The notes: generated by a model from the letters alone, not told the origin. Positions 31,542-57,596 are shown, numbered from the stretch's first letter. The stretch is DNA of 64,000 bases from Candidatus Lokiarchaeum ossiferum (GCA_025839675.1 CP104013.1:3233121-3297120); one strand, 5' to 3'. Program-made: numbers and translations.

Positions 31542-31693
31542 TACTTCTTTCCCTTGTGGTATTTTGATTTAATTAAAATATAAATTAGTATTACATTTCA
31601 GTATATACTAGGTGGACTAAATGGCCATCGATCAAATCGCTTATTGTGATTTAGATACTTAATATTCCAATTCCTTTTTTTTAGTCATTATGT

Positions 31694-31792
31694 TTATTCC
31701 AAGGAAAAGACCAATGTGGTAGGATGATGAGCCAAAGGTTCCAGTATGGAACAATGCTCAAGGTAGAAGGGGAAATAGGAGGGATTGGGCAT
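31694..31792 (-). pseudogene. 5' stub of the PIN-like cassette gene (MPNPSYFPFYLEHCSILEPLAHHPTT...*)
   Basis: The first 25 residues align with MPPFAEFPFCLENCHVLEPLPHHPKV of 36374..37102. The frame stops after 32 codons. Confidence 0.4.
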
Positions 31793-31870
31793 GAATCACC
31801 ACTTTATTTTAAAGGATTATAAAAAGATCACCATTGTGACAGTTATTCTTCCATTTTGAGATCCTTAAAT
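31787..31870. promoter_or_regulatory. Conserved divergent promoter/leader module, copy A (partial)
   Basis: gggcatgaatca...attataaaaagatcaccattgtgacag, the same block as at 37098, 41036 and 45001. Confidence 0.5.
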
Positions 31871-32103
31871 GAGCAACAGTTATTCTTCCATTTTGAGCAT
31901 CATTATATTGAGAGTCAGTTGACTCGTACCATCCCACCTTCGGCTATTTTATCGATCACTTCGCAAGGGATTGAGTTTTTGCAAATTCATGAAATTAATT
32001 TTGATCGAATTAGGGACTTTTTTATCCTAATTGATAAAGAAAAATCTGACTGTCGATTATTAATTCACAACTTTTATTTTCTTCTTCAACAGAGTTAATT
32101 TTC

Positions 32104-32856
32104 ATGGGAAAAAATGCACTCTTTGATGCTCTTCACACCTACTGGAAAACAGAAAGTAAAAAATATAACGGAAATGTACAAAGTAGGCAAAGTTTTGAAG
32201 ATTATCAAAAAGAAACTTTTTCTCGAATTTTAGGAGTTAACATGTTGCAAGAAAACATTTTTACGTCCGATGGAGTAAATCTTGCATGGGAAAAACGGAG
32301 TTCTAAAGAGTTGATGGAATATCAGTATCGATATCAGCCCATCCAAATTAAGAAAGGGCCAAATGTTAAAATATGGCAAGACCAACTGACTTTTTCTGGA
32401 GAAAGAGGAACTCATACCCATCCTTTACTGGGTTTAAATAAAATCCCCGAGATAATTCAGAATGGTGCATTTGATCGTATTCCAGATCATTATATGAAGA
32501 AAATTCAAAACTTTCTAACACCCAAATTATTAGCTGCTGAAAAACAAAAACTAATCAAGTTAATAAGTGAATTATTTGGAGAACTCATGCCGGGCGATGA
32601 AATTCCGCTCGTTCAAGCTGAAAAAATCATAAGACAAGAATTTTCATTCAATACTCTGACATCCAAGGATATTCTTGGATTTTTAAAAGAAATCGGAACA
32701 AAACTCAATGGATTTCAGTATATACGATTGAAAGAATCTATTCGGTATAGCAAAGAAATCCTTCCATTATCAGCCAATCTTGCTCAATTGGATAATTTGT
32801 TCATTGAATGGGATCAAGCAATACAAACTAACAATCACAATAAGAAGAAGAAATAG
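32104..32856 (+). CDS. Hypothetical protein (paralog family with 28507..29127)
   Basis: See the paralog alignment above. Sits directly upstream of the stand-alone peptidase-domain gene. Confidence 0.4.
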   Translation: MGKNALFDALHTYWKTESKKYNGNVQSRQSFEDYQKETFSRILGVNMLQENIFTSDGVNLAWEKRSSKELMEYQYRYQPIQIKKGPNVKIWQDQLTFSGERGTHTHPLLGLNKIPEIIQNGAFDRIPDHYMKKIQNFLTPKLLAAEKQKLIKLISELFGELMPGDEIPLVQAEKIIRQEFSFNTLTSKDILGFLKEIGTKLNGFQYIRLKESIRYSKEILPLSANLAQLDNLFIEWDQAIQTNNHNKKKK

Positions 32857-32861
32857 TTGAA

Positions 32862-33530
32862 TTGGAAACATTCACCCCAAGTTGGGAAAATTATTACTAT
32901 CGATTTTTCGATGGCTTAGGATATGATGTTGTTCATGTATATACAGGATATACTCGAAATCAGTTTTATAATGAACTTTATCAATGGACACCTCTCATTC
33001 AATGGGATGATGAATTGTTTATTATGATCCAAGGGCACGGGCTTGTGATGGATGATGAAGAAGAGACACCTTTACCGTATTTTACTCTCTATGATGGAGA
33101 TACTTTATATAATGGAGATAATGGTGAAATTTCAGGACAAGACTTCATAAATCGATTGATGTTATTTAGTGCTTTGAGGAAATGTGTATTTTTTGATACT
33201 TGCTATGCTGGAAAAGTGTTAGAAAGTTTTAATTCCGAAATTACCAAAGTTTTTCAAACTACTGATGCTACTCATGCAGCTGTGATGACATGCACTTATT
33301 ATGATGAAGCAATCGAAAATGCAAAATGGGAGAAAAGAAATACTCGGTTGGCAATTTTTTTTTTCCAAACTTTGAGTGCAACAACTTTAAGTGAGGATGG
33401 AATCTTCAATTATTTTCAGTTAGAACTAGCTTTAGAATCGTTATTACCATGGAATGATTTTTGTTACCAAGGAGGCACAATTCTGAATCCAGGTTGGAAT
33501 TTTTTGACTAAATATGGAATGTTATCATAA
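32862..33530 (+). CDS. Stand-alone caspase-like (clan CD-type His/Cys dyad) peptidase-domain protein
   Basis: A hydrophobic strand plus QGHG (LFIMIQGHG), then about 57 aa later a hydrophobic strand plus DxCxAG (KCVFFDTCYAG). About 80% identical to the C-terminal 220 aa of 41250..44498. Confidence 0.5.
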   Translation: METFTPSWENYYYRFFDGLGYDVVHVYTGYTRNQFYNELYQWTPLIQWDDELFIMIQGHGLVMDDEEETPLPYFTLYDGDTLYNGDNGEISGQDFINRLMLFSALRKCVFFDTCYAGKVLESFNSEITKVFQTTDATHAAVMTCTYYDEAIENAKWEKRNTRLAIFFFQTLSATTLSEDGIFNYFQLELALESLLPWNDFCYQGGTILNPGWNFLTKYGMLS

Positions 33531-33558
33531 TATTTGGGATATTAAACAATATTTCCCT

Positions 33559-33891
33559 CTATTTTTTTTTTTTAATAGCATTTTTTAATTCCCCAAAGGA
33601 GGTTTCTTTTCGCTTGTTATCATACCAACGTAAACTCCCAGTAAATCTTGACCCATGGTACCAAGTATCTAATAACTTTTTTCCTCCCAGTAAGTGGTCC
33701 CATGATTTTAGTATTTTTAATTCTTTTACGGTTCTTTTAGCAATGCATGAGTTACAGAAATAGATAGGAAGCGAAAAATAAGGGGTGTTTTCCGATGTTT
33801 GTTCGTTTACCGTGATAAATGGGTCCATATCAGTATACCATCTATGGCAAAAGTAGCATAGATTTTTGGAAGGTTCCTCATTTTTGACCAT
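33559..33891 (-). CDS. Small CxxC...CxxC zinc-binding protein. The start is probably the internal Met (MVKNEEPSKN), not the track's 33984.
   Basis: Aligns with paralog 44526..44864 from MMAKNKVPSKNLCYICQQW. The track's N-terminal 31 aa overlap the decayed PIN-like stub. Confidence 0.4.
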   Translation of the reverse strand: MVKNEEPSKNLCYFCHRWYTDMDPFITVNEQTSENTPYFSLPIYFCNSCIAKRTVKELKILKSWDHLLGGKKLLDTWYHGSRFTGSLRWYDNKRKETSFGELKNAIKKKK

Positions 33892-33959
33892 CAATACTAA
33901 TAAGATGGGTTGACAATTGAATTTTTTGGAGAATTTAGGATGCTCAAATAGGCATGAAC

Positions 33960-34187
33960 CTAAAAGATGTTGTTCATGAAACACCCGTAGTGTTGTTCAT
34001 CGAGAGCAAACTTCGCCGACGGGACCGAAAGGGTAAAAAGTTCCTGGAATGTGGATGGGAGGACATTCAATCCATGAAGAAAATCCACGGTGGTCGGATG
34101 GTGATCTAAGGATTCCAGCATGTGACAATTCTCGCTGTCCGTTAAATGTTCTGTGGGGCAGGAGCCACCGTGATCTACCTGTGGCAA
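33960..34187 (-). pseudogene. Decayed N-terminal fragment of the PIN-like cassette gene
   Basis: DSENCHMLESLDHHPTTVDFLHGLNVLPSTFQELFTLSVPSAKFALDEQHYG aligns with LENCHVLEPLPHHPKVVDFLRGLNVPPRILPDLYTLSVPAAKLALYEQHYG. The stretch is GC-rich like the intact gene and is truncated at 75 aa. Confidence 0.45.
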
Positions 34188-34563
34188 GCCGATTTCTTCA
34201 TGTAGTGGTATCCGACGATGCCGATCTTGATCGAAAGAAATCGTTTCCCTATCATCGCATCAAGAGTCCTTCTTCTCTTCAAGCGAGAAATACTATGAAA
34301 GCGGTTTCATTACCCCGATCGACCCTTATTGGTTTTTTTGAATCCGTCCACAATCGATCAATCAAACTTCCGTTTCCCTTATCGGTAAGCTATCTTCCGT
34401 GATTGCAATAATGCCATCATGGGAGCAGTTTTTTTTATTTTATAATTCAATGTATTTTTTATACAGAAAATTCTGGTTAATTGTATTTTTGATTCAGTTA
34501 ATTTAAATATTTAGTGTATAATATAGTCATAAGAAAGGGGTTGAAGGGAATCTCCCCCTTTTT

Positions 34564-35442
34564 TTGAAGGTATACAAAATGAACGAAAACCGATTGAAAA
34601 CTAAAAATACAATAACGCCTTTGCTAGGCTTTGTATTTTTATTTCTCCTGCTTGCAGGACAATTTTCCGAAGGAAATGCCGCCTATCAACCTCCGGTGGA
34701 ACCTCCTGAAGTAAATTTGAATGCGCCGTCTACCGTCATCGCGGGAACCTCCTTTACTGCCTCTATCTATATCCAAAATTATCCCGGAAGCAGTTATGGG
34801 TATGTTCAATGTTATGAAAATGGTGTATGGCAAAATGTCAAACGAGTTACGATCTCCTCGTCCCATGTGAGTGTGAGTCTTCCGACGAGCCCATACTATG
34901 AAAGATCAGTTTTATATCGCGTAAGGTATCGGGCTCCTTCTCGTTGGATTTACAGTAATACGGATAGCGTCAAAATTAATTTTGGTAGAACAATGTATCT
35001 TGAAGGACGAACTTGGGAAAAACAAATTCGTGATCAAAGCGGATTAAATGATTATTATGCGAGTGAATCCCATCACTACACTTGGGCTGCAAATACCAAT
35101 GAAATTTCGGTGAGTACTACTGGGATAAATTATAACAGGTTTATTGGAATGTCCACAACTTTTGTCGCTCAAAGCACGAGTATTCGAATTGACTTCGATT
35201 CCAAAGAATCGACGAACAAATATAGCGGAGTAGGCCAATATTCAATTATTTATGATCTCGATTGGGAAGTTGTTGGTTGGCTCTACTTTAGCGATTCCAC
35301 TTCCTATACTCATCACACTCACTTGTTTACAGAATTAGATGTAGGACAATCCTACTACTATTTTCATGCAAGTCGCGATAATTCCGTTTATCAAGGGTTC
35401 ACAATTACTTCCAAGAATTTTGTGTTGGATTTAACCCCTTAA
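34564..35442 (+). CDS. Secreted beta-rich protein, tandem paralog 1
   Basis: Signal peptide. AAYQPPVEPPEVNLNA...IQNYPGSSYG...RWIYSNTDSV...FVAQSTSI is shared with the next gene. Confidence 0.45.
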   Translation: MKVYKMNENRLKTKNTITPLLGFVFLFLLLAGQFSEGNAAYQPPVEPPEVNLNAPSTVIAGTSFTASIYIQNYPGSSYGYVQCYENGVWQNVKRVTISSSHVSVSLPTSPYYERSVLYRVRYRAPSRWIYSNTDSVKINFGRTMYLEGRTWEKQIRDQSGLNDYYASESHHYTWAANTNEISVSTTGINYNRFIGMSTTFVAQSTSIRIDFDSKESTNKYSGVGQYSIIYDLDWEVVGWLYFSDSTSYTHHTHLFTELDVGQSYYYFHASRDNSVYQGFTITSKNFVLDLTP

Positions 35443-35446
35443 ATAA

Positions 35447-36349: not shown

Positions 36350-36373
36350 GAGAAATTCTTACTTTCCCTTTTT

Positions 36374-37102
36374 TTAATAATTTTCGACCATGCGTTCCCA
36401 CTTCGTTTTCCTAGGATATTTGGATTGTATTAGAGTCTTTTGGCGCGCTTTTCGTTTCCGACGTGCCTTTCCACTTTCAAAACGACCAAAATCTTCCACA
36501 AACACGGCGATGTCCGTTTCCTTTACCTGATAGGAAGGAGTTTTAAGCGAGGACGGAAGAGCCGATCGATCAAATTTCCGATGATAGACCCGCCCCATCT
36601 CCTCTAAAATATTCGCTGAGAGAATGAAGGTCACACTCGGATTGGATGTAAACATCTGTCGAATCCGCTCCCGTTGTGATCGCTGGTGATCACAAAAATG
36701 CAGCAGGATATTGGAATCGATCAAAACCATTGCATCCGCGGGTAAGTTGGCAATGTCTTCGGGCCAATAGGCTTCATAGTCCAAAAATTCCCGGAGGTTG
36801 ATCAACAGATGATGATCCAAAGACGCCACCCCCCATTGGTTTTCGGCGGCCAGATAGGCCACGATCCAATCATCCACCCCAAAGGCCAAGGGACGATAAG
36901 GATGTTGTTCTTGAATAACCCCGTAATGTTGCTCATAGAGGGCTAACTTTGCGGCAGGCACCGAGAGCGTATAGAGGTCAGGAAGAATTCGTGGAGGTAC
37001 ATTTAAACCTCGGAGAAAATCTACAACCTTCGGATGATGGGGGAGAGGCTCCAACACATGACAATTTTCGAGACAGAAGGGAAACTCGGCAAAGGGGGGC
37101 AT
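36374..37102 (-). CDS. PIN-like nuclease-domain protein with an unknown N-terminal domain and a basic tail. This is the intact copy of the cassette gene.
   Basis: The C-terminal half has the PIN-like acidic quartet: VLIDSNILL (D), ILEEMG (E), ETDIAVF (D), VEDFGRF (D). The tail is RRKRKARQK. The gene looks markedly GC-richer by eye than its surroundings. Confidence 0.35.
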   Translation of the reverse strand: MPPFAEFPFCLENCHVLEPLPHHPKVVDFLRGLNVPPRILPDLYTLSVPAAKLALYEQHYGVIQEQHPYRPLAFGVDDWIVAYLAAENQWGVASLDHHLLINLREFLDYEAYWPEDIANLPADAMVLIDSNILLHFCDHQRSQRERIRQMFTSNPSVTFILSANILEEMGRVYHRKFDRSALPSSLKTPSYQVKETDIAVFVEDFGRFESGKARRKRKARQKTLIQSKYPRKTKWERMVENY

Positions 37103-37270
37103 GAATCATCTTTTGGTTTCTAAGAAACTATAAAAAGATCACGATTGTGACAGAATTGAGATTTGCGAGTGGTTTTTATAGATCAAAAGCAGTAGTATGG
37201 ATGTAACCATTTGAATACAAAAGGATGAAATGACAAAAGTGGCATTCAAACTTTAGTCCACATCTCTTTA
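37098..37270. promoter_or_regulatory. Conserved divergent promoter/leader module, copy B
   Basis: A TATA-like ctataaaaag (37128) abuts the dyad tcacgattgtga. An oppositely oriented ggtttttatag (37171) follows. The conserved leader ends about 85 bp before the ATG at 37356. Confidence 0.5.
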
Positions 37271-37355
37271 AGACCTAAGGATAATTTTCAGAAAATGTAT
37301 TCGAAACTGGAAACATGAAATTACTAATAACGCAAAACCAAAAAGTGAAAAAAAT

Positions 37356-40300
37356 ATGAAACCAAAAAAATTAATCTTCATCTTTTTTGTAGGAATCCTC
37401 ATGGTCCCCATCTTCCCCCAAGCGCAACTTTCCTTCGCAAGTGCAACGGTGGGTCAAAGTAATGGAGTCTGGGAAATAACCTATAATACTGATGATAGTG
37501 CAAATGTTGGTCCACTCTATGATGCCAACGGATATACTGCAATTTCCGAGTTAGATCCTGCAAGTTCAACCAATACATGGTACGATTATTCCCCATTAGA
37601 AGCAGGACATCAAGAATTAGACTTTGAATGCAATATCAAATTTGAAAATGGAGGTCGGAAACACATTTATCTGTATTTGGATAACGATCCCTCCCAATAT
37701 TTCCTACTGCAATATGAAAATGGGGATGTGTTTTCATACACTACAGATAATTGGGTAAAACAAAGCCAAAATATGGATTATAGTTATAATACTTGGCTGT
37801 CGTTTCAGTTAGAACTGATTCAAACCAGCTCCACCACAAAATTATTAACCGTAACTTTAGGAACCGATTCTTTTTCGATCGAACTGGATAGTGACAGTAC
37901 TGTTGACGCACTCAAAATGCGCACAATGACGGCCGGAAGTTCCGTCTTCTTTTCTGACGTCGAAGTGTCTTATTTGGAGGAATCCTGGCAAAGAATTTAT
38001 CCTGCGGAAAGCTCTGCATCTGCAATACCCCTTAATGATGAAACGGACGATGGACAGCTGTATTCAGATATTTATGAATTGGAGATGGACGTGGGACTGA
38101 ATACGTGGTATGAATATACCAAATCGGGAATTGAATACAATTTCTTGCATTTTGATTGCAATTTGAAATTTCTGGATGGAGGAGCTAGAAAATGGTATTT
38201 TTATTTTGATGATGGGGCTTATTTCATTATCAACTTCGAAAATCAATGGATCAGATCATATGTTTCGAATGCTGACGTGCCAAACTGGGTTTCTCAGAGG
38301 TCTTACGGCTATGGGGATTGGAATCATATCGAATTTGATATCGTTCAAAAGAATTCTGTAACGAAAGAATTAAAAATGAGCATAAATGGGCTCCCATTTA
38401 CTTATCCTGTCCTTATGTCTAGTGGATTCAATGTGAAAATTGAATACTTAAGAGTGCGTCTTCAAACTAGCGGAAGTCTTTTGATTTCCGATATGGCAGT
38501 CGATAATGATCAGGATGGATTGGATGAGGTTGAGGAAGCTATGCTAGGGTCTGATCCTCTCCTTAAAGATACTGATGGCGATTTTGCTTATGATGGGGAA
38601 GAAGCCTCTATCTATGGAACGGATCCAACGGTTCCCGATGAGGCAAATGGTTTTACACTGATCTATCCAGAAGGTGGTCCAGGCAGAGTTGATATTTCCA
38701 CAGATTCATCTACCGGTTCAAAGATATATCAGCTAAATTCGGAAGGTTCATCTAATACTTGGTTTCAACATCGATTGAATGGCCTAAGAGCTCAATCTGT
38801 CGGATTTCATTGTAAAATAAAAGTGCATGATTCTCAAGAAAAATACTTGTACTTCTATTTTGACGATGGTGATTATTTCATAGTTCGATTTATTAATCTA
38901 CATCTCTATACCACCTATATTCATAATGGGGTTGGCAACGGGTGGAGGGATCAGTATATTTATTATGGGGACCAGGATTGGTTGGATTTATCAATCACTA
39001 TTACTGGAGGACCCAATATCAAAACATTAGATGGATCTTTAGATGGAAATCCCTTTGATGATTCCGAATTCATGTATTCGAAAGGTGTTTTTGACAAGCT
39101 TAAAACCCGCCAAACTGGAACGGATAATTTGTGGAGTTTCACGGAGTTTATGATTGATTCGGATTTGGATGAGTTATCTGATGTAGAGGAACTTGATTTA
39201 GGCACCGACCCGACGGATGCGGATTCGGATGGGGATGGGTTAACCGATGGAGAAGAAGTCAATAATCATGGCACTAACCCTCTAGTGGCGGATTCGGATG
39301 GTGATAAATTTTCTGATCTCCTCGAAATTCGTGGGAAATTAAATCCTATGGATCCCAGCGATGTATTTACAGATGAATGCACCCTTGGAGGTTATGTTCC
39401 AAGCGAATGGGTGATTCCAAGCTCAGATGTGGGCATCCAAGCAATACCAAATGATTGGGATGATACTAGTTATTTAAGCGACAATTTTATGCTCTCTATC
39501 AGTCCCACATATCGGCACGATTCTCGCAGTATAGAAATTCCATTACAACAACTAGATGTCATGGAAAATTTTGCATTTTCATGTTATGTTGGGCAAAATT
39601 GGTTAGGAGGTGAAGAATCATGGCAAATTTATATTAAAGATACTTCAGGAAAAGGTTTTGCTTTGAACTATAAAGGTGATCAATTCTACATTAGTGATAC
39701 TACACTTCTTTCTTTCAGCTCGGATATTATTCAAGTACCTAATCCAAATAAAATTATGCATGAAATGAGGATAACCTTAAAATTTGTTGGCGATCATACC
39801 GATATTTTCCTATATTTTGCAGATACTTCAATGGGTAACTACTCCATCGAGATGGGAAAAATGTTATCCAAAATCATTGTTACTCGAACAACGACTTTTA
39901 ATACTCCTGAGATACCCTCCTTTGGATTTGATAATTTTAAAATAATCCAATGGAAATGGCCTTATTATAAATTGATGGAAACTTATCCTTCTAATGAAGG
40001 GAGAGATGGGCATTTAACCATTAATAACGTCCAAAAAGGCGTTGGTAAAGGACCTGGGTTCTATGAAATAATGTCCTCTGTCGATTTTGATCGGAATTGG
40101 AATGATGATGGTTTGGAAGGGATGCACTTGGATGGTTCTTTTTGTGATACAGGTTCCTTCAATTTTGTTTCTCATGCAAAATTATTTGATATATTCGGGA
40201 CTGGAATTACCCAACCTCAATCAAGTATAACTAAAATGGAACTTGATTTAAAGATCAATGGTCCTGATGGTCCTATCGATTTATCTACAGCAAATGGAAT

Positions 40301-40841
40301 CAGTAATCTAATAGATCCATACTTAATTAACATGATTGAAAATTTGGACACTATTACAGATTTAAATGAGGTTACTGAAATTCTTGAAGGAGTTGGGACA
40401 CTCTACCAAGTAACAGAACAATTATTAGATATGTATGATACCGTACCTGAATCACTTCAAGATGTTTTGGGACCAATTTCCCTGGTTATGGATCTTGTGG
40501 GTTTTTATTCTGAGGAAAATACACCACATCCCGAGTGGACTTGTGATACATTAGATAATGATCCTTATACCTATCAAGTCAAATATGACTTTGATTTCGT
40601 ATCTGGAGTTTCTTGGGGTAGTACAAATTTTGCTATGGGATTTAATTTAAATTTTTACGAAGTAATTGAACATCTTGAAGAAACAATGGATATTGGTGAC
40701 AGATACACTTTTACGATAACTCAAAGAACATTCTTGACTGGGATTTCCTATAATTGGATCTTTGGAAGATGGGAAGAATCCACAGAAATTATGGTTGAAG
40801 ATACTTTTAAATTTGAACTCACATCCACCGATTCTTTTTAG
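37356..40841 (+). CDS. Giant secreted protein with three roughly 190-aa jelly-roll/LamG-like repeats separated by Ca-binding DxDxDG (TSP3-like) linkers
   Basis: Signal peptide MKPKKLIFIFFVGILMVPIF. Internal repeats carry NTWY.Y...FDCNLKF..GG.K.Y.YFDDG.YF. DTDGDF, DSDGDGLTDGEE and DSDGDKFSD motifs. Confidence 0.55.
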   Translation: MKPKKLIFIFFVGILMVPIFPQAQLSFASATVGQSNGVWEITYNTDDSANVGPLYDANGYTAISELDPASSTNTWYDYSPLEAGHQELDFECNIKFENGGRKHIYLYLDNDPSQYFLLQYENGDVFSYTTDNWVKQSQNMDYSYNTWLSFQLELIQTSSTTKLLTVTLGTDSFSIELDSDSTVDALKMRTMTAGSSVFFSDVEVSYLEESWQRIYPAESSASAIPLNDETDDGQLYSDIYELEMDVGLNTWYEYTKSGIEYNFLHFDCNLKFLDGGARKWYFYFDDGAYFIINFENQWIRSYVSNADVPNWVSQRSYGYGDWNHIEFDIVQKNSVTKELKMSINGLPFTYPVLMSSGFNVKIEYLRVRLQTSGSLLISDMAVDNDQDGLDEVEEAMLGSDPLLKDTDGDFAYDGEEASIYGTDPTVPDEANGFTLIYPEGGPGRVDISTDSSTGSKIYQLNSEGSSNTWFQHRLNGLRAQSVGFHCKIKVHDSQEKYLYFYFDDGDYFIVRFINLHLYTTYIHNGVGNGWRDQYIYYGDQDWLDLSITITGGPNIKTLDGSLDGNPFDDSEFMYSKGVFDKLKTRQTGTDNLWSFTEFMIDSDLDELSDVEELDLGTDPTDADSDGDGLTDGEEVNNHGTNPLVADSDGDKFSDLLEIRGKLNPMDPSDVFTDECTLGGYVPSEWVIPSSDVGIQAIPNDWDDTSYLSDNFMLSISPTYRHDSRSIEIPLQQLDVMENFAFSCYVGQNWLGGEESWQIYIKDTSGKGFALNYKGDQFYISDTTLLSFSSDIIQVPNPNKIMHEMRITLKFVGDHTDIFLYFADTSMGNYSIEMGKMLSKIIVTRTTTFNTPEIPSFGFDNFKIIQWKWPYYKLMETYPSNEGRDGHLTINNVQKGVGKGPGFYEIMSSVDFDRNWNDDGLEGMHLDGSFCDTGSFNFVSHAKLFDIFGTGITQPQSSITKMELDLKINGPDGPIDLSTANGISNLIDPYLINMIENLDTITDLNEVTEILEGVGTLYQVTEQLLDMYDTVPESLQDVLGPISLVMDLVGFYSEENTPHPEWTCDTLDNDPYTYQVKYDFDFVSGVSWGSTNFAMGFNLNFYEVIEHLEETMDIGDRYTFTITQRTFLTGISYNWIFGRWEESTEIMVEDTFKFELTSTDSF

Positions 40842-41035
40842 ATTTTTATTGCTTTTTTTTTCTCAGGCTATAAGTATATTTTTTTTCTCATTTTTGATAA
40901 TATTTTCTTGATTTAAACGGAGAAAATATGAGTTATGAAATTTTGATGAAAATCAAGAAATTCTTTTCATTATGAAAACCCGAAAAATAAGAAGAAAAAC
41001 ATCTTTCCGAAACATCCATTGATATCTCATCAAGC

Positions 41036-41190
41036 ACCTATAAAAAGATCACGATTGTGATAGTTGTGCAAATTGCGAGTGGTTTTTATAGATCAAAAGC
41101 AGTATTATGGATGTAACCATTTGAATACAAAAGGATAAATGGACAAAAGTGAGAAACCGATTTTTGTTCCACATCTCCTTAATAGTAATT
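41036..41190. promoter_or_regulatory. Conserved promoter/leader module, copy C (lacks the minus-gene stub)
   Basis: cctataaaaagatcacgattgtgatag...ggtttttatagatcaaaagcagtattatggatgtaaccatttgaatacaaaaggat. Confidence 0.5.
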
Positions 41191-41249
41191 TTTCAATATC
41201 CTTTTTGTATTCTACTTGAACAATATTTAAAAGAAAAAAGGTAAACATA

Positions 41250-44200
41250 ATGAATCAAAAAAAAAGACTGCTATCGTTATATGCGTTGCTTCTTTTGACC
41301 TGTTCCGCCTTAATATATACTAATATGGGAACTGGGGTCGCAGAAATCAATATTTCAGAATGGACAAATGTGCCAAATTATGGTCCTTCGGAATTATCCA
41401 ATTTCATGGATGAAGATCGAGGGGAGGTAATGAAAATATATGATGCCGGATGGGGATTAGTCCAAAAGGATATAATTCCGCAATATATTGCAGGAAACAA
41501 AATTTGGTATTCCTATTGCGTGAAAGTAACTGGTGGGGAATCGAATGATTATGGGGGGGTGAATTTAAGCCCATCTACCATCAACACTGGGGCCGTAGGA
41601 ATGCGAATTCATGCGGGAACGAGTTTAAAATATTGGCTTGGAGATGGACAAGAGCATGATACATTCATTGACGTAGAAACAGATCAATGGTACCACATAG
41701 GATGTTCATATGAGTCTGATGGTCAATTCGAAGCATATTTGGATGGGGAGATGATCCTTTCAGAACAAGCCAAGCCTATCAGCAATTTAAATTATGTTTA
41801 TGCTGCAACATGCTCCCAATCAACTTTTCTGGATGATATCTATGTTGGAGTTTCTAAGGATGAAGCATTTAATAGTTTCCAAGATGAAGTAACTACCATA
41901 CTAATTGATGATTTTTCGGAAGATTCGATTGGGTTTTTACCCTTAGATTGGGAACTAACTGCAGGCGGATATTCATCTTTTAGAACTGTAGAACTAGCCG
42001 AATCTCCATATGATCAGGTTTTAAGAATCTATGATTATGGACAAATTCCCACCGTATACTCAAAAGTGGAAAAAAAAATTCCCGCTGGTTTTGGATCTAT
42101 TGAATGGGATTTAAAAACAGATTCACCAGGAAATAATAATGGTTATTTCGGATTGATGGAAGGGGATAATTGGTTGATATCGATTGGGATAATAAATAAT
42201 CAATTCAGAGTTTATTACCACAATGATCATGCTTCGTATAGTGTCTACGACACAAACGTTGTTGCTTCAAATCAATGGACCCACCTTAAAATGGAGTATG
42301 ATGGCGAGCAAGATGATTGTCGAATATTTGTTAATGGGGTTGAGGTAAGAAGTACACCATTCAATACAAAATATGCCTCTTTTGTTGATGGTCTATATTT
42401 ACACTCAGGAGAAACTGGATCTGGAAAAAGTTATTATGACAACATTCAAGTGAACTGGGTAAAACAGCGTGTGGATTCTTTTATGGAATATGCTGGCATT
42501 ATCAATTTTGATGATAGTTACAATCAAGATCCTCTAGCAAGCTGTCAAGAATGGTCTTCCGATGTTAATTCGGGCTATCAAATCCTAGATGCAGTGACCA
42601 CACACTCAAGTGTATTGGCAATAACCGATTTAGTTTCTTCTTCGAGCTGCTTTACAAAACTAAACATTAATACTCCTTTAGGGGTTGGAGGCTGTGTAGA
42701 AGGATGGATATCTGGATCGAGTATCATAAATAATGCGTATATGGGCATTAATTTTGGGGATAATTACTGGTTATTGTCCGTGGGGATCAATAATGGTCAT
42801 TTTAAAGTTTATCATCGAACGAGCTATTCAACATATAGTACCGCTGTTTCTACCATAGAAGCAAATCCAAATCAATGGTATTTTGTTTGTTTATATTATG
42901 ATGGTATGTCTGATATTTGTACTGTATCGATAAATGGTGTTACTATTGGACAATATAGTCTTTATGACGTTGCTGGAATTACATCAATATATCTCCATTC
43001 GGGAGAAAATGGGGGGGGTACAAGTTACTATGACTCAATTTCGTATGATTGGGCAAATGAATATGATGCAGGAGATGCAAGAATAATAGACTTCGATAGG
43101 GACCATTTAAGCCACAAGTATGAAGAGACCCATATTTATGAATCTGGATTAAAAACTTCTCCTTGGAAATGTGATTCTGATAATGATAGGGTAAATGATT
43201 GGGATGAAATCTGTGGTATCTACGGATATATTACTGATCCAACTCGGATTGACTCTGAACCGATTGGATCTGAAGATGGGCTGAATGATTATTTAGAATT
43301 ATTTAGATATCATACCGATCCAACTCACTATGATTCTGACCGTGATGGGCTGACTGATGGAGATGAAGTCAACTTATATGGCACCGACCCGACCACGGCG
43401 GATTCGGATGGGGATGGGTTGACCGATGGGGAAGAAATAAATGGGTATGATATGATGTATCTAGACGAGCTTTATCATGAACATAAATATGCAACATATT
43501 ATACAAATCCGCTTCTTGTTGATTCAGATAATGATAATTGGAGTGATAAGCAAGAACTTGATTTGATACAAGCTGATTTAGATCAAATTCATGAACCTAA
43601 TCCTGCGGTAGATAACTATCGGTATTTAGATCCAATGTGCCGAGATAGTGATTTAGATTTTCTTCCCGATGGATGGGAAGAATATTATGGACTCGATCCT
43701 TGTGAATATAATTCAGAGCTGGAATTAATCGAAAACAATGTTCCTGATATATATTATTTCTTTGCGCCAATTCAAGAACCAGATCAAGAACGGGTCTCGG
43801 GATTGCGAATTGCCTTGATATTCATTAATCCAGACATAGTTTCGCCAAGTTGGGCAAATTATTACTCTCGAGTCTTCGATAAGCTAAATTATGATGTAGT
43901 GCATGTTTATACAGGTTACACCCGAAATCAGTTTTATAATGAATTGTATCAGTGGACACCCCTTATTCAAGCGGATGATGAATTATTTATAATGATCCAA
44001 GGACATGGGCTGGTGGAGGACAATGAAGAAGAAACTCCGTTGGCGTATTTCACTCTTTATGATGACGATGAGGTGTTTGACCAGGATGTTGGTGAAATTT
44101 CGGGACAAGAGTTTTTAAATCGATTGAAGTTATTTAGTGCCTACAGGAAATGTGTGTTTTTTGATACCTGTTTCGCTGGAAAAGTGCTTGAAAATTTCGA

Positions 44201-44498
44201 TTCGGAAATAACTAAAGTCTTTCAAACTACTGATGCCACCCACGCACAGTATAGAACAGTCAGCAAATTTGATAAGATTATGCAGAATGCTAAGTGGGAG
44301 AAAAGAAATACTTATGTTGCATCATTTTTCTGGGATACTTTAGGTGCAACCACTCTAAGTGAAGATCCAATTTTCAAATATATTCAGGCGGATTTGGCAT
44401 TTGGTTCTCTTTTACCGTGGAGTCGAACGGGTTATCAAGGAGGAACTATTTTGAATCCGGGCTGGAATTATTTGGAACGTTATAATATATTTGTCTAA
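41250..44498 (+). CDS. Giant secreted LamG/jelly-roll protein with TSP3-like Ca-binding repeats and a C-terminal caspase-like peptidase domain
   Basis: Signal peptide. WYHIGCSYESDG.FEAYLDGEMI is LamG_3-like. DSDGDGLTDGEE is present. The C-terminus has LFIMIQGHG ... KCVFFDTCFAG. Confidence 0.55.
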   Translation: MNQKKRLLSLYALLLLTCSALIYTNMGTGVAEINISEWTNVPNYGPSELSNFMDEDRGEVMKIYDAGWGLVQKDIIPQYIAGNKIWYSYCVKVTGGESNDYGGVNLSPSTINTGAVGMRIHAGTSLKYWLGDGQEHDTFIDVETDQWYHIGCSYESDGQFEAYLDGEMILSEQAKPISNLNYVYAATCSQSTFLDDIYVGVSKDEAFNSFQDEVTTILIDDFSEDSIGFLPLDWELTAGGYSSFRTVELAESPYDQVLRIYDYGQIPTVYSKVEKKIPAGFGSIEWDLKTDSPGNNNGYFGLMEGDNWLISIGIINNQFRVYYHNDHASYSVYDTNVVASNQWTHLKMEYDGEQDDCRIFVNGVEVRSTPFNTKYASFVDGLYLHSGETGSGKSYYDNIQVNWVKQRVDSFMEYAGIINFDDSYNQDPLASCQEWSSDVNSGYQILDAVTTHSSVLAITDLVSSSSCFTKLNINTPLGVGGCVEGWISGSSIINNAYMGINFGDNYWLLSVGINNGHFKVYHRTSYSTYSTAVSTIEANPNQWYFVCLYYDGMSDICTVSINGVTIGQYSLYDVAGITSIYLHSGENGGGTSYYDSISYDWANEYDAGDARIIDFDRDHLSHKYEETHIYESGLKTSPWKCDSDNDRVNDWDEICGIYGYITDPTRIDSEPIGSEDGLNDYLELFRYHTDPTHYDSDRDGLTDGDEVNLYGTDPTTADSDGDGLTDGEEINGYDMMYLDELYHEHKYATYYTNPLLVDSDNDNWSDKQELDLIQADLDQIHEPNPAVDNYRYLDPMCRDSDLDFLPDGWEEYYGLDPCEYNSELELIENNVPDIYYFFAPIQEPDQERVSGLRIALIFINPDIVSPSWANYYSRVFDKLNYDVVHVYTGYTRNQFYNELYQWTPLIQADDELFIMIQGHGLVEDNEEETPLAYFTLYDDDEVFDQDVGEISGQEFLNRLKLFSAYRKCVFFDTCFAGKVLENFDSEITKVFQTTDATHAQYRTVSKFDKIMQNAKWEKRNTYVASFFWDTLGATTLSEDPIFKYIQADLAFGSLLPWSRTGYQGGTILNPGWNYLERYNIFV

Positions 44499-44525
44499 AT
44501 TTCGGGATAGTGAGTAGTTTTGCTC

Positions 44526-44864
44526 TCACTTTTTTTTTATTTCTTCTGCATTTAATGAATCCCCAAAAATGATTTCCTTACGCTTTCTATCAACCAACCG
44601 CAAATTTCCCGTAAATAAGGGCATATGAAGCCACGTATTTAATAATTTTTCCCCTCCCAGTACATGATCCCATGATTTTAATATTGTTCTTTCGTTTTTC
44701 GATATTTTCGCAAGGCACGAGCTACAAAAAAAAATAGGTAATGGATATGGAATGGAATTATTGGGTCTTTTTTCGGTTACCGTAATAAATGGGGACATAT
44801 CAGCACGCCACTGTTGACATATGTAACATAAGTTTTTGGAAGGTACTTTGTTTTTGGCCATCAA
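44526..44864 (-). CDS. Small CxxC...CxxC zinc-binding protein (cassette partner)
   Basis: LCYICQQW...FFCSSCLAK. Paralog of 33559..33891. Confidence 0.45.
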   Translation of the reverse strand: MMAKNKVPSKNLCYICQQWRADMSPFITVTEKRPNNSIPYPLPIFFCSSCLAKISKNERTILKSWDHVLGGEKLLNTWLHMPLFTGNLRLVDRKRKEIIFGDSLNAEEIKKK

Positions 44865-44934
44865 TGTTAGCTATGAAGGGCAGACTATTGAAATTTTTGG
44901 CGAACTTCTACTCCTTGGTCTTTCTGAAATTCAC

Positions 44935-45006
44935 TTAGTTTATATTGATGATGAGCCGTAAATTCCAATTCTCGAGATCGAAGGGGACCTCGGAGGGGAG
45001 GGGCAT
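44935..45006 (-). pseudogene. 23-codon stub of the PIN-like cassette gene (MPLPSEVPFDLENWNLRLIININ*)
   Basis: Starts at the conserved gggcatgaatc position of module D. Aligns with MPPFAEFPFCLENCH. Confidence 0.35.
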
Positions 45007-45165
45007 GAATCGCCCTATGTTTTTGGGATGCTATAAAAAAAACTCGCTTGTGACAGAAGTGTAAATTTCGTGTGGTTTTTATAGATCAAAGTCAATATTA
45101 AGCATGTAGCCATTTGAATGCAAAAGGATGAAATGACAAAACTGGAATTCAAGCTATCGTCTTTG
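45001..45165. promoter_or_regulatory. Conserved divergent promoter/leader module, copy D (more diverged)
   Basis: gggcatgaatcgcc...gctataaaaaaaactcgcttgtgacag...gtggtttttatagatcaaag...catttgaatgcaaaaggatgaaatgacaaaa. Confidence 0.45.
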
Positions 45166-45230
45166 CCTCTTCCATTCCTCACCTTGATTTTCTGCCAAAA
45201 GTTCTTCAATGGGATACAGTGTGATAAAAA

Positions 45231-48029
45231 ATGTTGGATAAAAATAAAAAAGGCAAGAAGAAATTGTCCTTGGGATCTAAAATCGGAATGTGCCTCTTCA
45301 TTGTTGCGATGATCTCTACCAATAGCCCAAATCTGATAAAAAGCGCTTCAGCAATTTCCGTGAATGATTGGGAATTAAATCCTGAATGGGAAGGGTGGGA
45401 AGAGGATTCTACTCTTGGAAATCAATATACACGCGTCGCTGAATATTCAGATTTAGGCTCACGAGATCCGGTGTTGGGACTCCGCGATGGTTCCTATTAT
45501 GGAGAAGCGAAAATAAAGAATGAATTTCCCAACCAACCTGCGGGGGCTTTTTCCACCGAATTGAAAATCGTTGAAACCTCTTATGGAAATGAGGATTGTT
45601 CTTTTATTCGATTTTATTCAGGAACAACAATTGCTGCTGCTTTAATTATTGATAATAATTTTAGATATGCTCCTGACCAAGGAGTATCCGATGCCCCTAT
45701 AAGATCGATCAATGTGGAATTGGAGACGTGGTACCACTTTGCTGCTGAATGGAATAGTCAAGCAACTGGAACTAATGAGTGGACATTTTACATTAACGGT
45801 CAAATTATTGCTCAGTTCGATTCGACCAATCCGTTTTCAGGAATTAATAATATCACAATTAGTACATATCTTGGCGATATAACTCATAATCTGACCTTAC
45901 ATAACCTACGACATATGGATGATTCTTCCACAATTAACCAAATTTGGGAAGAAGATAAATTTTTTGAATGGACTAGCGGTGGGACGAATCAATGGTGTCA
46001 TATTTCGACTAACATTTTTGAAGATCGAAACGTGTTAAAACTAAACGATGGTTCATGGGTCGGGGAAGCAATCGCAACAGCGAACTTTGATTTATCCGAA
46101 AAGGGATCGTTTTCTACAAATATTCGAATTGTTGATTCTGGTTATGGAGAAACAGATTGTTTCCTAATTAGATTTCTCTCAGGATCGACTGTGAGCAGCT
46201 ATATGACCATGTGGGAAGATCAAGGTGTAAATACGATCAGATTTTGTGGATCTGACGGCAATTCTTACCCCACAGGATCAACATACTCTACTAATGTGTG
46301 GAATGATGATTTCAAAGCCGAATGGGATTGCTCAGGAAGTGGTAAAGACCAATGGGTTTTTTCTCTGGGAGGCACAGTAATAAAGACATTTGAATCTGAA
46401 AAATACACTTCAGGAATTAATCAAATTTCGATTCGCTCTTTATATAGCAAACCAACCAATTATGTCTATTTTAATGATATTCAAATCGATTCGGATGATG
46501 ATGGTCTATCACGTAAAGAAGAATTGCTCTTTGGCACCGACCCGACCACGGCGGATTCGGATGGGGATGGGCGCGAGGACGGGGTGGAGATTAGATATAT
46601 GACAAATCCTATAATAAATGAAGTCTTTTGGGAAGATTTTGAAGAAATTTCTTTACCAAGTGGATATATTGATAATGGAGATACTATCGGAGAGTGGCAA
46701 GTGGCTAAAGATAATGATGATTTTTGTGATCTATATGTCGATCAGAGTCCAAGCTATTGGGGAGAATCTTCTCAAGTTTTATGGCTTCATACTACTGATG
46801 AAAGTCTCATTGATATTTATAAAAATGATATCGCTTCATCTGGAGATAATTTGGTTTATTTTCGCTCCTCTATTAGTATAGGACAGCTTCAGTATCAACA
46901 GTTTTATGTTGATTTTACCTATGGAACTTCTTCACGCTTGCATTTTCTGTTTTCTAGTGGAGAATTATTTTTCTGGGATTCCTATTATATATATGGGAAA
47001 CACCTTACTGCTTATAAACCTGTATATGATGCAGCGAGCAATGTTGTTGTTTATAGTGAAGATCAAAAAATTGATTTCGAAGTATTCATTGATAAGGACC
47101 AATCCACTTGGACTCTGAAATGGAATGGACAAGCAATAATGAAGCAATATGATCTTGATTTTGGTAATACTTTTAATCGAGTGATTTTAGGCACACCATC
47201 AACATCTTCTGGACGAGTTTTTCTTGATGATCTCGTTTTTGAACATGGGAAAATCACTAAAGATGATTCGAAGACCTTATACAATAAAATAGTTCCGAAT
47301 ATAGTCGCCTGTTTACCTGGGTTCAATGAGGAATTCTCTGAAGATTCTATTGGCGATACTAGCCTTGTAGGATTAGAAATATCATCAATCGTTTCTCGAG
47401 ATACTGAGTATTCCTTCAATTTTCCTTTTGTTTCAGTTAGTTATGATGATGAAATTGAAACGGGTCCACATCATGATGAGGTTCGAACAATTGGTCAAGA
47501 ACATTGGTATTGGTACTATAAAATTTATGGAGATATTGAATTTTACTCAATCGACTTAACAGAGTATTCATATTCTGCTTCCTTTTTGGCATTTTATTCA
47601 TTTGACCCATATTCAACTCAAAACACCGTACTTACCAATCATCCCTATTCAGATCTCCGCGATGATTGCTCGTATTTAAATCAGGAAACATTTGATTATT
47701 GGGTCCAGCCATCATATACTTCTGAATACTCTTGTCCTCAACAATACACGGATTCTGGGAGTCAAACTCAAAAAGGATGGGATTACACCATTAGTAAACA
47801 AACCACATTAGGATTGAATTTTGAGTTATCCTTTGCCACACCAGTCCAATCAATTTCTCTTCCCCTTGGCATATCTTTTGCATTCAATGTTGAACGAGAT
47901 TTAGATTTCTGGTACTATCTGATATTGAAAGATACCCATACTTCTACTAAATCAGTAACTTATAATATGAATGCCAATGTAGCTAAAGGTTTTTATACTT
48001 TTTTTATTAGTGATTTTAAGATTCACTAA
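45231..48029 (+). CDS. Giant secreted LamG/jelly-roll surface protein with one TSP3-like Ca-binding motif
   Basis: Signal/anchor region (KIGMCLFIVAMISTNSP). Repeated ETDCFLIRF..G motifs. DSDDDG...DSDGDGREDG. Confidence 0.55.
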   Translation: MLDKNKKGKKKLSLGSKIGMCLFIVAMISTNSPNLIKSASAISVNDWELNPEWEGWEEDSTLGNQYTRVAEYSDLGSRDPVLGLRDGSYYGEAKIKNEFPNQPAGAFSTELKIVETSYGNEDCSFIRFYSGTTIAAALIIDNNFRYAPDQGVSDAPIRSINVELETWYHFAAEWNSQATGTNEWTFYINGQIIAQFDSTNPFSGINNITISTYLGDITHNLTLHNLRHMDDSSTINQIWEEDKFFEWTSGGTNQWCHISTNIFEDRNVLKLNDGSWVGEAIATANFDLSEKGSFSTNIRIVDSGYGETDCFLIRFLSGSTVSSYMTMWEDQGVNTIRFCGSDGNSYPTGSTYSTNVWNDDFKAEWDCSGSGKDQWVFSLGGTVIKTFESEKYTSGINQISIRSLYSKPTNYVYFNDIQIDSDDDGLSRKEELLFGTDPTTADSDGDGREDGVEIRYMTNPIINEVFWEDFEEISLPSGYIDNGDTIGEWQVAKDNDDFCDLYVDQSPSYWGESSQVLWLHTTDESLIDIYKNDIASSGDNLVYFRSSISIGQLQYQQFYVDFTYGTSSRLHFLFSSGELFFWDSYYIYGKHLTAYKPVYDAASNVVVYSEDQKIDFEVFIDKDQSTWTLKWNGQAIMKQYDLDFGNTFNRVILGTPSTSSGRVFLDDLVFEHGKITKDDSKTLYNKIVPNIVACLPGFNEEFSEDSIGDTSLVGLEISSIVSRDTEYSFNFPFVSVSYDDEIETGPHHDEVRTIGQEHWYWYYKIYGDIEFYSIDLTEYSYSASFLAFYSFDPYSTQNTVLTNHPYSDLRDDCSYLNQETFDYWVQPSYTSEYSCPQQYTDSGSQTQKGWDYTISKQTTLGLNFELSFATPVQSISLPLGISFAFNVERDLDFWYYLILKDTHTSTKSVTYNMNANVAKGFYTFFISDFKIH

Positions 48030-50589: not shown

Positions 50590-50840
50590 TTTTTTTTTAA
50601 GAATATTATCTCAGATAATGTTTTTTCATATTGATCATTCATAGAATGCAAGAAGAAATTGGATTTTTCCAAAGATAAAGAGGTCTGGAAAAAAAGTTGG
50701 ACTTCTTTTTTAGAATTTTTTCTCATTTTGAGGAAAAATTTCTTTCAGGGAAAATCTCAGTTCATCCTTTTGCATTCAATATTTGAACACTATTCATAGG
50801 GTGATATTTCTATTTAAACACCGTGGTAATAGCAAAATAA

Positions 50841-57295: not shown

Positions 57296-57455
57296 AATGT
57301 AGTCAACATATTTTTCTAAGATTCTTGCAAATTTTGAGAAAAAATATACTTCTTTTAATCATGTAGGCTTCAAAAATTAGTGACTACTTTGCATTTTGGT
57401 TTTGAACATATATATTATAGAAAAAAATCTATTTAAACTCGGTGGTGTTAGCAAA

Positions 57456-57488: not shown

Positions 57489-57596
57489 AGAACACAAAAT
57501 ACGCAAGAAGTTATATTACAAGATGAAAAAAATAGAAAATTTCATAGATATAATGGATGGAGAATGGAAAAATCGGTTTTAACGATTTTTTTTGAA

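Follow-up and report, generated by a model that had tools for sequence, protein, structure and literature searches.

A repeated promoter-like block in an island of predicted secreted calcium-binding proteins of Candidatus Lokiarchaeum ossiferum

Why does one short block of DNA recur in front of dissimilar genes for large secreted proteins in a single chromosomal region of an Asgard archaeon? We examined this question in a 64,000-nucleotide stretch, referred to below as the window, of the 6.03-Mb chromosome of Candidatus Lokiarchaeum ossiferum (GCA_025839675.1, CP104013.1:3233121-3297120), which carries NEF87_002771, a stand-alone caspase-like open reading frame (ORF), and NEF87_002779, an ORF for a small protein with CxxC pairs. 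The blocks lie in an island spanning about 28 to 58 kb of the window and flanked by archaeal housekeeping genes (an aSelB-like GTPase, a beta-CASP nuclease, ABC transporters, and a PhoU-like protein). A sequence-only reading of this region had proposed a multicopy cassette with four parts: a PIN-like gene, a divergent promoter with its leader, a giant calcium-binding LamG protein, and a small CxxC protein, possibly serving as a variable surface-antigen system. On balance, we favor another reading, in which exported calcium-binding proteins are encoded by a lineage-specific island whose transcription units probably share a duplicated and selectively maintained bidirectional promoter, operator, and leader.

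Copies and anatomy of the repeated block

A scan for TATAAAAAGATCAC-N4-GTGA, allowing up to 3 mismatches, returned 6 matches in the window versus 0.18 expected. All of them fall between 31.8 and 57.5 kb, at 31818, 37129, 41039, and 45032 on the plus strand and at 50841 and 57460 on the minus strand, and none in the first 28 kb. A 19-nt motif of the adjoining leader, TTGAATRCAAAAGGATGAA, was matched four times against 0.19 expected. The five copies described earlier are all present; a sixth, at 50761-50862 on the minus strand, had been missed. Comparing the region with itself by blastn paired 37122-37271 with 41032-41182 (85% identity), 37062-37258 with 44966-45161 (78%), 31722-31842 with 37032-37153 (71%), and 37111-37153 with 57499-57457 (86%). 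This comparison, which had been suggested for defining boundaries, resolved three full and three partial copies. Only 37062-37271, 41032-41182, and 44966-45161 hold the full block of about 150 to 200 bp, at a mutual identity of 78 to 85%. The earlier description of a block of about 170 bp at every site is thus accurate at 37.1, 41.0, and 45.0 kb and fails at 31.8 and 57.5 kb, where the copies are partial. The copy at 31722-31842 comprises only a PIN-like 5' end, a TATA box, and the palindrome; that at 57428-57499 retains both TATA boxes and the palindrome, with similarity spanning about 50 to 70 bp; and that at 50761-50862 has these three elements plus the leader motif. The copies are as follows, with the two boxes denoted TATA1 and TATA2.

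U0, 31818..31839, plus strand: TATA1 and TCAC-N4-GTGA palindrome, without a second TATA box or leader; identical to U2 at 21 of 22 positions
U2, 37103..37271, plus strand: reference block; TATA1 at 37129-37136, palindrome TCACGATTGTGA at 37139-37150, TATA2 TTTTTATA at 37173-37180
U2 leader, plus strand: conserved part at about 37197-37250, 19-nt motif at 37211-37229
U3, 41032..41182, plus strand: no PIN remnant; TATA1 and palindrome identical to U2 at 22 of 22 positions
U4, 45007..45161, plus strand: degenerate palindrome (3 mismatches), TATA2 at 45076, leader motif at 45114-45132
U6, 50761..50862, minus strand: orphan copy; TATA1 and palindrome at 50841-50862, TTTAAATA at about 50811-50818, leader motif at 50761-50779
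U5, 57428..57499, minus strand: upstream of the gene for a 1208-aa protein; TATA1 and palindrome at 57460-57481 (2 mismatches), TTTAAATA at about 57430-57437; no PIN remnant

Downstream of the orphan U6 there is only a 51-aa ORF. Directly after the palindrome of U0, a 21-nt direct duplication of CAGTTATTCTTCCATTTTGAG (31840-31860 and 31877-31897) occupies the place that the second TATA box has in other copies.

On the minus strand of U2, TTTTTATAG is followed after 25 nt by the ATG of the PIN-like gene, and this spacing is kept in both stubs of that gene that retain an ATG. Such spacing is the archaeal promoter geometry for a nearly leaderless mRNA, so TATA1 would drive a nearly leaderless transcript of the minus-strand PIN-like gene. 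Only two bases separate the palindrome TCACGATTGTGA from TATA1. At a distance of 44 bp from TATA1, another TATA box (TTTTTATAG or TTTAAATAG) points toward the plus-strand gene; in U2, it precedes a leader of about 155 nt, the first 50 or so of which are conserved. The shared divergent promoter and leader of the sequence-only reading are present at this locus.

How unevenly is the block conserved? Pairwise identity between copies is 82 to 100% for TATA1 with the palindrome, 79 to 96% from TATA2 to the putative start, and 80 to 90% for leader positions +1 to +50; it is 58 to 73% for the PIN stubs, the 22-nt spacer between the palindrome and TATA2, and the distal leader. When pooled, the cis-elements reach 81 to 90% versus 62 to 64% for the background of stubs, spacer, and distal leader (Fisher p = 5e-6 to 4e-3), P values that are optimistic because the sub-region boundaries were drawn post hoc, with the alignment already seen. 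Between U2 and U3, the elements are identical at 22 of 22 and 27 of 28 positions and the 22-nt spacer that separates them at 15 of 22, an alternation that speaks for selection on separate sites and against a gene-conversion tract. Neighboring duplicated genes have a synonymous divergence (dS) of about 0.9 to 1.2; the cis-elements have diverged by no more than 19%. Moreover, TATA1 and the palindrome are kept in U3, U5, and U6, which have no minus-strand gene, and these two elements therefore probably have a role for the plus-strand gene too. Overall, the pattern is as expected if a shared control region is under selection.

No stable structure was predicted in the leader RNA (z-scores of -1.1 to +2.0 for five leaders), and an Rfam search of 30 to 60 kb (E <= 1) gave no match at the blocks; on these results, a structured RNA or riboswitch was rejected. 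Small ORFs within the block, namely, an upstream ORF starting at a leader ATG and a minus-strand ORF of 23 to 32 codons across TATA2, were rejected on inspection because their lengths vary between copies and their substitutions are almost all nonsynonymous.

In the reading that we favor, six transcription units would carry copies of one compact archaeal control region. Its TCAC-N4-GTGA palindrome would be a likely operator for a dimeric transcription factor, and the second TATA box would drive the plus-strand gene through a conserved, unstructured leader of about 50 nt containing TTGAATRCAAAAGGATGAA. Segmental duplication would have spread the region and dragged along 5' fragments of the neighboring PIN-like gene; these fragments would have decayed to stubs, as duplication scars, and the cis-elements would have been kept by selection. 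One regulator would probably switch the dissimilar secreted proteins together. The duplication itself, which the earlier reading had asserted, is evident from the stubs and the repeated blocks. The co-regulation that it also asserted is plausible, since the cis-elements are conserved above background.

Genes that adjoin the blocks

If the PIN-like gene were a regular part of a cassette, it should accompany the blocks. Its copies in the island are listed here.

PIN-like gene, 36374..37102, minus strand: the only intact copy; 242 aa, conserved N-terminal domain and basic tail; GC content 47.6%
Stub C, 31694..31792, minus strand: decayed 5' end of the PIN-like gene, 32 codons (MPNPSYFPFYLEHCSILEPLAHHPTTLVFSLE, then a stop); 55% identity over 29 aa by tblastn
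Stub A, 33960..34187, minus strand: 75-codon ORF, PIN-like over codons 12-62 only; GC content 48%
Stub B, 44935..45006, minus strand: decayed 5' end of the PIN-like gene, 23 codons

The claims that the gene is intact only at 36374..37102 and is elsewhere reduced to stubs of 23 to 75 codons were borne out. The claim that each block separates such a gene from a giant secreted protein was not: a PIN-like gene or stub adjoins only 3 of the 6 blocks, with no remnant at 41039, 50841, or 57460, and the gene downstream of the 31818 copy encodes a 250-aa protein without a signal peptide. Conversely, stub A adjoins no conserved block. Its identity by codon position (0.78, 0.80, and 0.37) is a coding-type substitution pattern, and stub A may still be translated or may have lost its 3' part only recently. 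Downstream of stub C, a 72-aa ORF (31323-31541, minus strand) has TSP3-like acidic DxDxDG motifs and a C-terminal hydrophobic helix; it could encode a small membrane-anchored calcium-binding protein expressed from the minus-strand promoter or represent the end of a larger gene that has since been lost.

The product of the intact gene, 242 aa long, is a member of a small Lokiarchaeal family, of which we found five relatives, with a conserved N-terminal domain, the segment LIDSNILLHF...NILEE, and a basic tail. PIN active sites usually have four conserved acidic residues; in this family, the D of LIDSNILL and the E of NILEE are conserved, and further acidic residues occur distally (ETD and VEDF), not aligned to any model. 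No PIN model (PF01850, PIN_3, PIN_12, or Fcf1-like) matched significantly over the whole domain. The window protein matches PIN_3 with an E value of 0.016 and 16.5 bits (cut-off, 27) over profile positions 2-61 of 115; the best PIN match among the five relatives (E = 4e-4) is likewise below curated cut-offs and confined to the N-terminal half of the domain; and a PDB sequence search gave nothing better than E = 0.17. "PIN-like" is thus acceptable as a description, with the PIN assignment itself putative. Another full-length paralog occurs in L. ossiferum, NEF87_000089 (56% identity), whose neighborhood of acetyltransferases, RidA, and a CoA ligase is shared by another Lokiarchaeal assembly and does not contain the motif. 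The closest relative (65%), from another metagenome, sits between unrelated cytoplasmic and leucine-rich repeat proteins, with no block. Neither context supports membership of the PIN-like gene in a recurrent cassette.

The composition of the gene is also unusual. Its GC content of 47.6% (48% at third codon positions [GC3]) and the 48% of stub A (GC3, 57%) stand out in a window of 34%; the closest metagenome relative (L004, 861-1586) has 45.6%, the conserved syntenic paralogs have 34 to 36%, and host sequences have 32 to 36%. The gene may have been acquired, or its subfamily may be under unusual constraint. It behaves as an extra, possibly acquired paralog rather than as a constant cassette component and is most likely a passenger that marks duplication edges. 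A VapBC-type toxin-antitoxin module was considered and rejected, there being no adjacent antitoxin gene and the protein being a 242-aa, two-domain product with a conserved syntenic paralog; its only toxin-antitoxin-like trait is the palindrome beside its promoter.

On the other side of the blocks, and around them, lie the following genes.

250-aa protein, 32104..32856, plus strand: first gene downstream of U0; no signal peptide, no family match
Tandem secreted paralogs, 34564-35442 (292 aa) and 35447-36349 (300 aa), plus strand: mutual identity 41 to 43%
1161-aa secreted protein, 37356..40841, plus strand: signal peptide, three internal modules of about 175 aa, TSP3 calcium repeats, unique C-terminal region
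1082-aa secreted protein, 41250..44498, plus strand: three Laminin_G_3 stretches, TSP3 repeats, C-terminal caspase-like domain (about 43800-44495)
932-aa secreted protein, 45231..48029, plus strand: TSP3 repeats
1208-aa secreted protein, 53669..57295, minus strand: Laminin_G_3, TSP3 repeats, repeated modules

All four giant proteins begin with hydrophobic, Sec-type signal sequences, which predict export and possibly a surface location. Scores for TSP3_bac (PF18884; cut-off, 25 bits) are 47 bits in the 1161-aa protein, 50.7 in the 1208-aa protein, 24.5 in the 1082-aa protein, and 22.5 in the 932-aa protein. Signal peptides and calcium-binding repeats, as reported before, are thus supported throughout. 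The LamG architecture is narrower than had been claimed: Pfam Laminin_G_3 exceeds the gathering score in the 1082-aa protein (69.4 bits over three stretches) and the 1208-aa protein (78.9 bits) and is not significant in the other two. Nor do the giants form one repeat family. BLASTP between them finds little beyond TSP3 repeats and, for the 1208-aa and 932-aa proteins, an identity of about 25%; hhalign of their repeat modules is weak or null, with no convincing common module family; and their C-terminal regions are unrelated. PDB sequence searches with the 1161-aa and 932-aa proteins gave nothing useful. With only signal peptides and TSP3 repeats common to the giants, conservation is higher in the upstream block than in the genes that follow it. 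The tandem 292- and 300-aa secreted paralogs lie downstream of a PIN stub without a block. In its C-terminal third, the 250-aa protein is paralogous to 28786-29097 (31%, E = 2e-10), within a 206-aa ORF (28507-29127). In the 1082-aa gene, tandem 69-nt repeats at 43314-43484 code for TSP3 units, and two independent short-read contigs both stop within them, at 43389.

The caspase-like domain of the 1082-aa protein has a second copy in the island, and each copy is accompanied by a CxxC gene.

Stand-alone caspase-like ORF (NEF87_002771), 32862..33530, plus strand: 222 aa, TTG start; without beta-strand 1 or a signal peptide
CxxC copy A, 33559..33894, minus strand: about 111 aa, two conserved CxxC pairs; converges on the caspase-like ORF; 58% identity to copy B
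CxxC copy B (NEF87_002779), 44526..44864, minus strand: 111 to 112 aa

Is this a caspase domain? A profile built from the two copies was run against 1.84e9 (representative) proteins and, besides the query ORF, returned only three matches (E = 6.5e-5 to 6.7e-4), all of which carry Pfam Peptidase_C14 exactly at the matched region. In an alignment with these three Pfam-verified C14 domains, H77-G78 and D130-x-C132-x-x-G135 are invariant, and both window copies keep them. Together, the remote matches and the dyad context uphold the proposal of a caspase-like His/Cys domain, which on this evidence we classify as a divergent clan CD, C14-like caspase domain with putative protease activity. The NCBIfam model caspase_w_EACC1 scores 24.8 bits against a cut-off of 140.

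The association with a convergent CxxC gene, also noted before, is confirmed; the caspase-like region and the CxxC gene were duplicated as one 1.06-kb unit (32877-33936 versus 43845-44907, 73% identity). The ratio of nonsynonymous to synonymous divergence (dN/dS) is 0.18 for the caspase-like domain and 0.32 for the CxxC gene, at a dS of about 0.9 to 1.2. Joint duplication under purifying selection suggests that the two work together, and they would form a duplicated sub-module of the island. Four cysteines are kept in both CxxC copies, as C-Y-[IF]-C and C-[SN]-S-C. The protein has no match, to a zinc ribbon or any other family, in Pfam (even at E <= 10), NCBIfam, PADLOC, or PHROG, and a PDB sequence search gave nothing useful; UniRef labels it DUF448 (YlxR), which the Pfam scan did not reproduce.

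Word-indexed homolog searches with the caspase-like ORF and the CxxC protein recovered only the queries themselves. Among billions of proteins, we found no homolog of the caspase-like domain beyond the marginal C14 matches and none of the CxxC protein, and the co-occurrence of components in other genomes that the earlier reading had suggested checking could therefore not be shown. This absence is weak evidence, because the window's own 1082-aa protein and CxxC copy A, both intact ORFs, have no exact record in the protein collections and were not returned as homologs of their 58 to 73% identical paralogs. Taken together, the components do not recur as a set, and with half of the blocks lacking a PIN remnant, the four-part cassette is not supported.

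The stretch 48030-52380 is gene-poor and looks degraded.

52-aa ORF, 48594-48752, minus strand: ribbon-helix-helix-like by eye; no Pfam match, one PHROG of unknown function
PD-(D/E)XK endonuclease ORF, 50125-50589
GIY-YIG ORF, 51490-51762, minus strand: 90 aa
CARF/HFX_2341-type predicted regulator, 52385..53179, plus strand: 264 aa; Pfam HFX_2341_N, E = 7e-15; PADLOC CARF3, E = 2e-15

A tRNA-like fragment at 49439-49497 (minus strand; 23.6 bits, E = 0.84) is below the Rfam threshold. The CARF-type regulator gene is placed between the two minus-strand copies of the block, no CRISPR-Cas genes were seen in the ORFs scanned, and its product is a reasonable candidate for the palindrome-binding factor. 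Beyond 58 kb, a small GTPase-like protein with a weak Gtr1/RagA match (58920-59543) and a 448-aa TPR protein (62235-63581, minus strand), which matches the MIT domain at its N terminus and whose DNA has internal repeats of a 162-nt period, are of the typical Asgard "eukaryotic signature" type.

Alternative origins of the repeats

Several points weigh against the reading of a shared, selected control region. We infer promoter polarity and co-regulation from geometry only. There are only 3 to 6 copies, in one genome, and the specificity of the block to the island was judged within the 64-kb window. No orthologous or homologous cassette was found elsewhere, and conservation was judged between these copies. 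The background identity of about 62% is close to that of a global alignment of unrelated AT-rich DNA, with sub-region boundaries drawn after the alignment, and the high identity of the blocks could come in part from younger duplication or recombination rather than from selection. As for the caspase-like domain, Pfam gives no hit at E <= 0.01; structure predictions reached a predicted local distance difference test (pLDDT) score of 34 with 2 sequences and 41 with 5 sequences, C14 domains included, and yielded a rough topology only; and the stand-alone copy, without beta-strand 1, may be inactive.

Scans for TATAAAAAGATCAC-N4-GTGA gave 9 matches in the genome contigs, 20 in the metagenome contigs, and 1 in the viral contigs, all of them single and none extending past the pattern; the genome contigs evidently do not include the L. 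ossiferum genome, and copy number here refers to the 64-kb window. The element was thus not found in the genome or metagenome collections, and we found no description of this locus or motif in the literature.

Among the alternatives, the one that survives best takes the block as the terminal part of a selfish or mobile unit centered on the GC-rich PIN-like gene, such as a toxin-like gene whose promoter reads outward; this unit would have inserted repeatedly and decayed, with the secreted genes as chance neighbors. The GC excess of the gene and stub A, the GC-rich closest relative beside conserved paralogs of 34 to 36%, and the presence of one intact and three decayed copies within 14 kb all suit such a unit, as does an island with PD-(D/E)XK and GIY-YIG genes, a ribbon-helix-helix-like ORF, and a gene-poor stretch. 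So does a sharp 98-nt direct repeat around the 1208-aa cassette (53465-53562 and 57597-57694; 94% identity, unrelated flanks), which brackets that gene and its block. Its two copies are 4132 bp apart and form the only att-like repeat in the window; the repeat suggests that this cassette was inserted or duplicated as a unit, later than the other copies. On the minus strand, the repeat contains a terminator-like hairpin, UACUUC-GCUGAG-GAAGUA, followed by a T-run. However, no transposase, integrase, or recombinase was found in the ORFs scanned across the 64 kb, and there are no terminal inverted repeats or short target duplications around the blocks. Three of the six blocks have no PIN remnant and still keep TATA1, the palindrome, and the leader, and conservation runs about 50 nt into the plus-strand leader, the side that a PIN-centered element would not need. 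The PIN-like, caspase-like, and CxxC proteins have no match in viral contigs, PHROGs, or PADLOC, and no block copies occur in the first 28 kb. We regard the mobile-unit explanation as unlikely. An insertion sequence, transposon, or integrated element in the ordinary sense was rejected, given the lack of any such gene and of viral-contig relatives, and a defense-system or viral origin of the cassette proteins was rejected for want of PADLOC or PHROG matches; in PADLOC, the 250-aa protein has no match either, and only the CARF regulator and the small nucleases do.

A second explanation places control after transcription, with the PIN-like protein, as a putative endoribonuclease, and/or the four-Cys protein acting on the leader RNA of the secreted proteins. 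The first 50 nt or so of the leader are conserved as well as the promoter (80 to 90%) and have no stable structure and no Rfam match, which would suit a single-stranded site of protein binding or cleavage; the PIN-like gene diverges from the same control region; and stub A retains the N-terminal domain only, with coding-type substitutions. Yet the PIN similarity is weak and covers half a domain (best E = 4e-4, below cut-offs), the gene is intact once only, and its conserved paralog lies in an unrelated, housekeeping-like neighborhood. No experimental or comparative link ties the PIN-like or four-Cys proteins to the leader, whose conservation could equally act at the DNA level, as an operator or initiator region. 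This makes post-transcriptional control improbable.

Could the blocks instead be recombination substrates, with exchange or inversion (45.0 kb on the plus strand versus 50.8 and 57.5 kb on the minus strand) shuffling the secreted protein that is expressed, much as at the Campylobacter fetus sap genes or other antigenic-variation loci? Copies do occur in both orientations, including an inverted pair, highly divergent coding regions follow a conserved 5' block, and the orphan copy without a gene and the copy without TATA2 could be past recombination products. However, a complete promoter copy precedes each of the large genes, and rearrangement would therefore leave expression unswitched. The inverted copies share only about 48 to 54 nt at 76 to 86% identity, a poor substrate for homologous recombination, and no site-specific recombinase is encoded nearby. 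Independent assemblies of two sequencing runs show an identical arrangement at 43.4 to 46.6 kb, in which one short-read contig spans U4. Invertible-promoter, shufflon, and cassette-switching systems were rejected on the same grounds, the identity of the assemblies and the lack of a recombinase domain in the ORFs scanned. We give recombinational shuffling hardly more than a slim chance, and the antigenic variation once suggested for this locus found nothing in its support, with no recombinase in the window and a promoter copy at every gene.

Finally, collapsed or mis-joined repeats, which a short-read contig stopping within the 37.1-kb block might suggest (a sign that repeats trouble short-read assembly), have a negligible probability: the copies differ by 15 to 30%, so mis-assembly cannot have duplicated them, ORFs are intact across the junctions, and Logan short-read contigs from two sequencing runs match the window at 100% identity over 29144-37192, 43389-46561, and 43389-44983, covering the U0 and U4 blocks and reaching up to U2. 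For the contig-covered parts, an assembly artefact, which the earlier reading had asked to be checked, is excluded, and the repeats are real. All four alternatives are less well supported than the reading that we favor.

Analogues and meaning for Asgard biology

The closest analogues of a duplicated, selectively maintained control region upstream of exported-protein genes appear to be bacterial surface-protein multigene families with a conserved upstream promoter/operator box. The erp/ospE-F and mlp loci of Borrelia burgdorferi are surface-protein multigene families with a conserved "upstream homology" promoter/operator region. There as here, a block of 100 to 200 bp is far better conserved than the divergent exported-protein genes behind it, and copies arose by duplication; in Borrelia, co-regulation by shared DNA-binding proteins is thought to follow. 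The Lokiarchaeal blocks differ in being putative bidirectional promoters of the archaeal TATA and B recognition element (BRE) type, in an Asgard archaeon; in being grouped in a single chromosomal island, whereas the Borrelia loci are carried by plasmid or prophage replicons; and in preceding very large multidomain TSP3/LamG proteins rather than lipoproteins. In the Campylobacter fetus sap (S-layer) genes, conserved 5' regions are used for recombinational switching. Those loci, too, hold large surface-protein genes with a conserved 5' block and divergent bodies, clustered in both orientations, but they depend on a single promoter and a block that includes coding sequence, whereas the genes described here have their own promoter copies behind a block that is noncoding on the gene side, with no rearrangement seen.

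Among archaea, promoters with a palindromic operator next to or overlapping the BRE/TATA region are known, as are bidirectional promoters. The block resembles the former in its TATA box, about 26 to 30 nt upstream of the putative start, and its short perfect palindrome beside a TATA box, and the latter in its compact divergent units, with 44 bp between boxes. It departs from single archaeal promoters in having six diverged copies with a conserved 50-nt leader; its starts and operator are putative. The caspase-like domain, in turn, shares with prokaryotic caspase homologs (orthocaspases and metacaspases, Peptidase_C14) the His-Gly and Asp-x-Cys-x-x-Gly dyad context, and its sole remote relatives are C14 proteins, one of which (P0009) is likewise a long beta-rich multidomain protein with a C-terminal caspase domain. 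Unlike those homologs, the window domain scores below every curated threshold, was found only in this genome, occurs on a predicted Sec-exported LamG/TSP3 protein paired with a convergent four-Cys ORFan, and has a second, N-terminally truncated, stand-alone copy. We therefore regard the locus as an archaeal variant of a duplicated surface-protein cluster with a shared upstream region and not as a categorically new system. Because the phenomenon is well known in bacteria and the elements are confined to one genome, as searched, the value of the finding is for Asgard biology, and it introduces no new concept.

Very few Asgard archaea have been cultured, L. ossiferum among them. The organism has no S-layer and bears numerous complex surface proteins, proposed to mediate cell-cell contacts relevant to eukaryogenesis (PMC9834061). 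The island proteins fit this published description of the surface and are not identified by it. For studies of how such surface proteins are regulated, the locus provides a concrete candidate cis-regulatory element in six copies (TATA, TCAC-N4-GTGA, TATA, and the 19-nt leader motif), a limited set of candidate surface proteins for joint testing, and a very divergent caspase-type domain predicted to be exported on a LamG/TSP3 scaffold. A bolder idea, which we hold only tentatively and think rather unlikely, is that the 22-bp TATA-palindrome, the opposed TATA box, and the 50-nt leader form a portable module, maintained by selection and set ahead of otherwise unrelated and rapidly diverging exported proteins, that places the whole set under one regulator, possibly the ligand-sensing CARF-domain factor of the island. 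If true, this module would be the first defined operator and regulon for Lokiarchaeal surface proteins, and the regulated set would include an extracellular caspase-type protease and its four-Cys partner.

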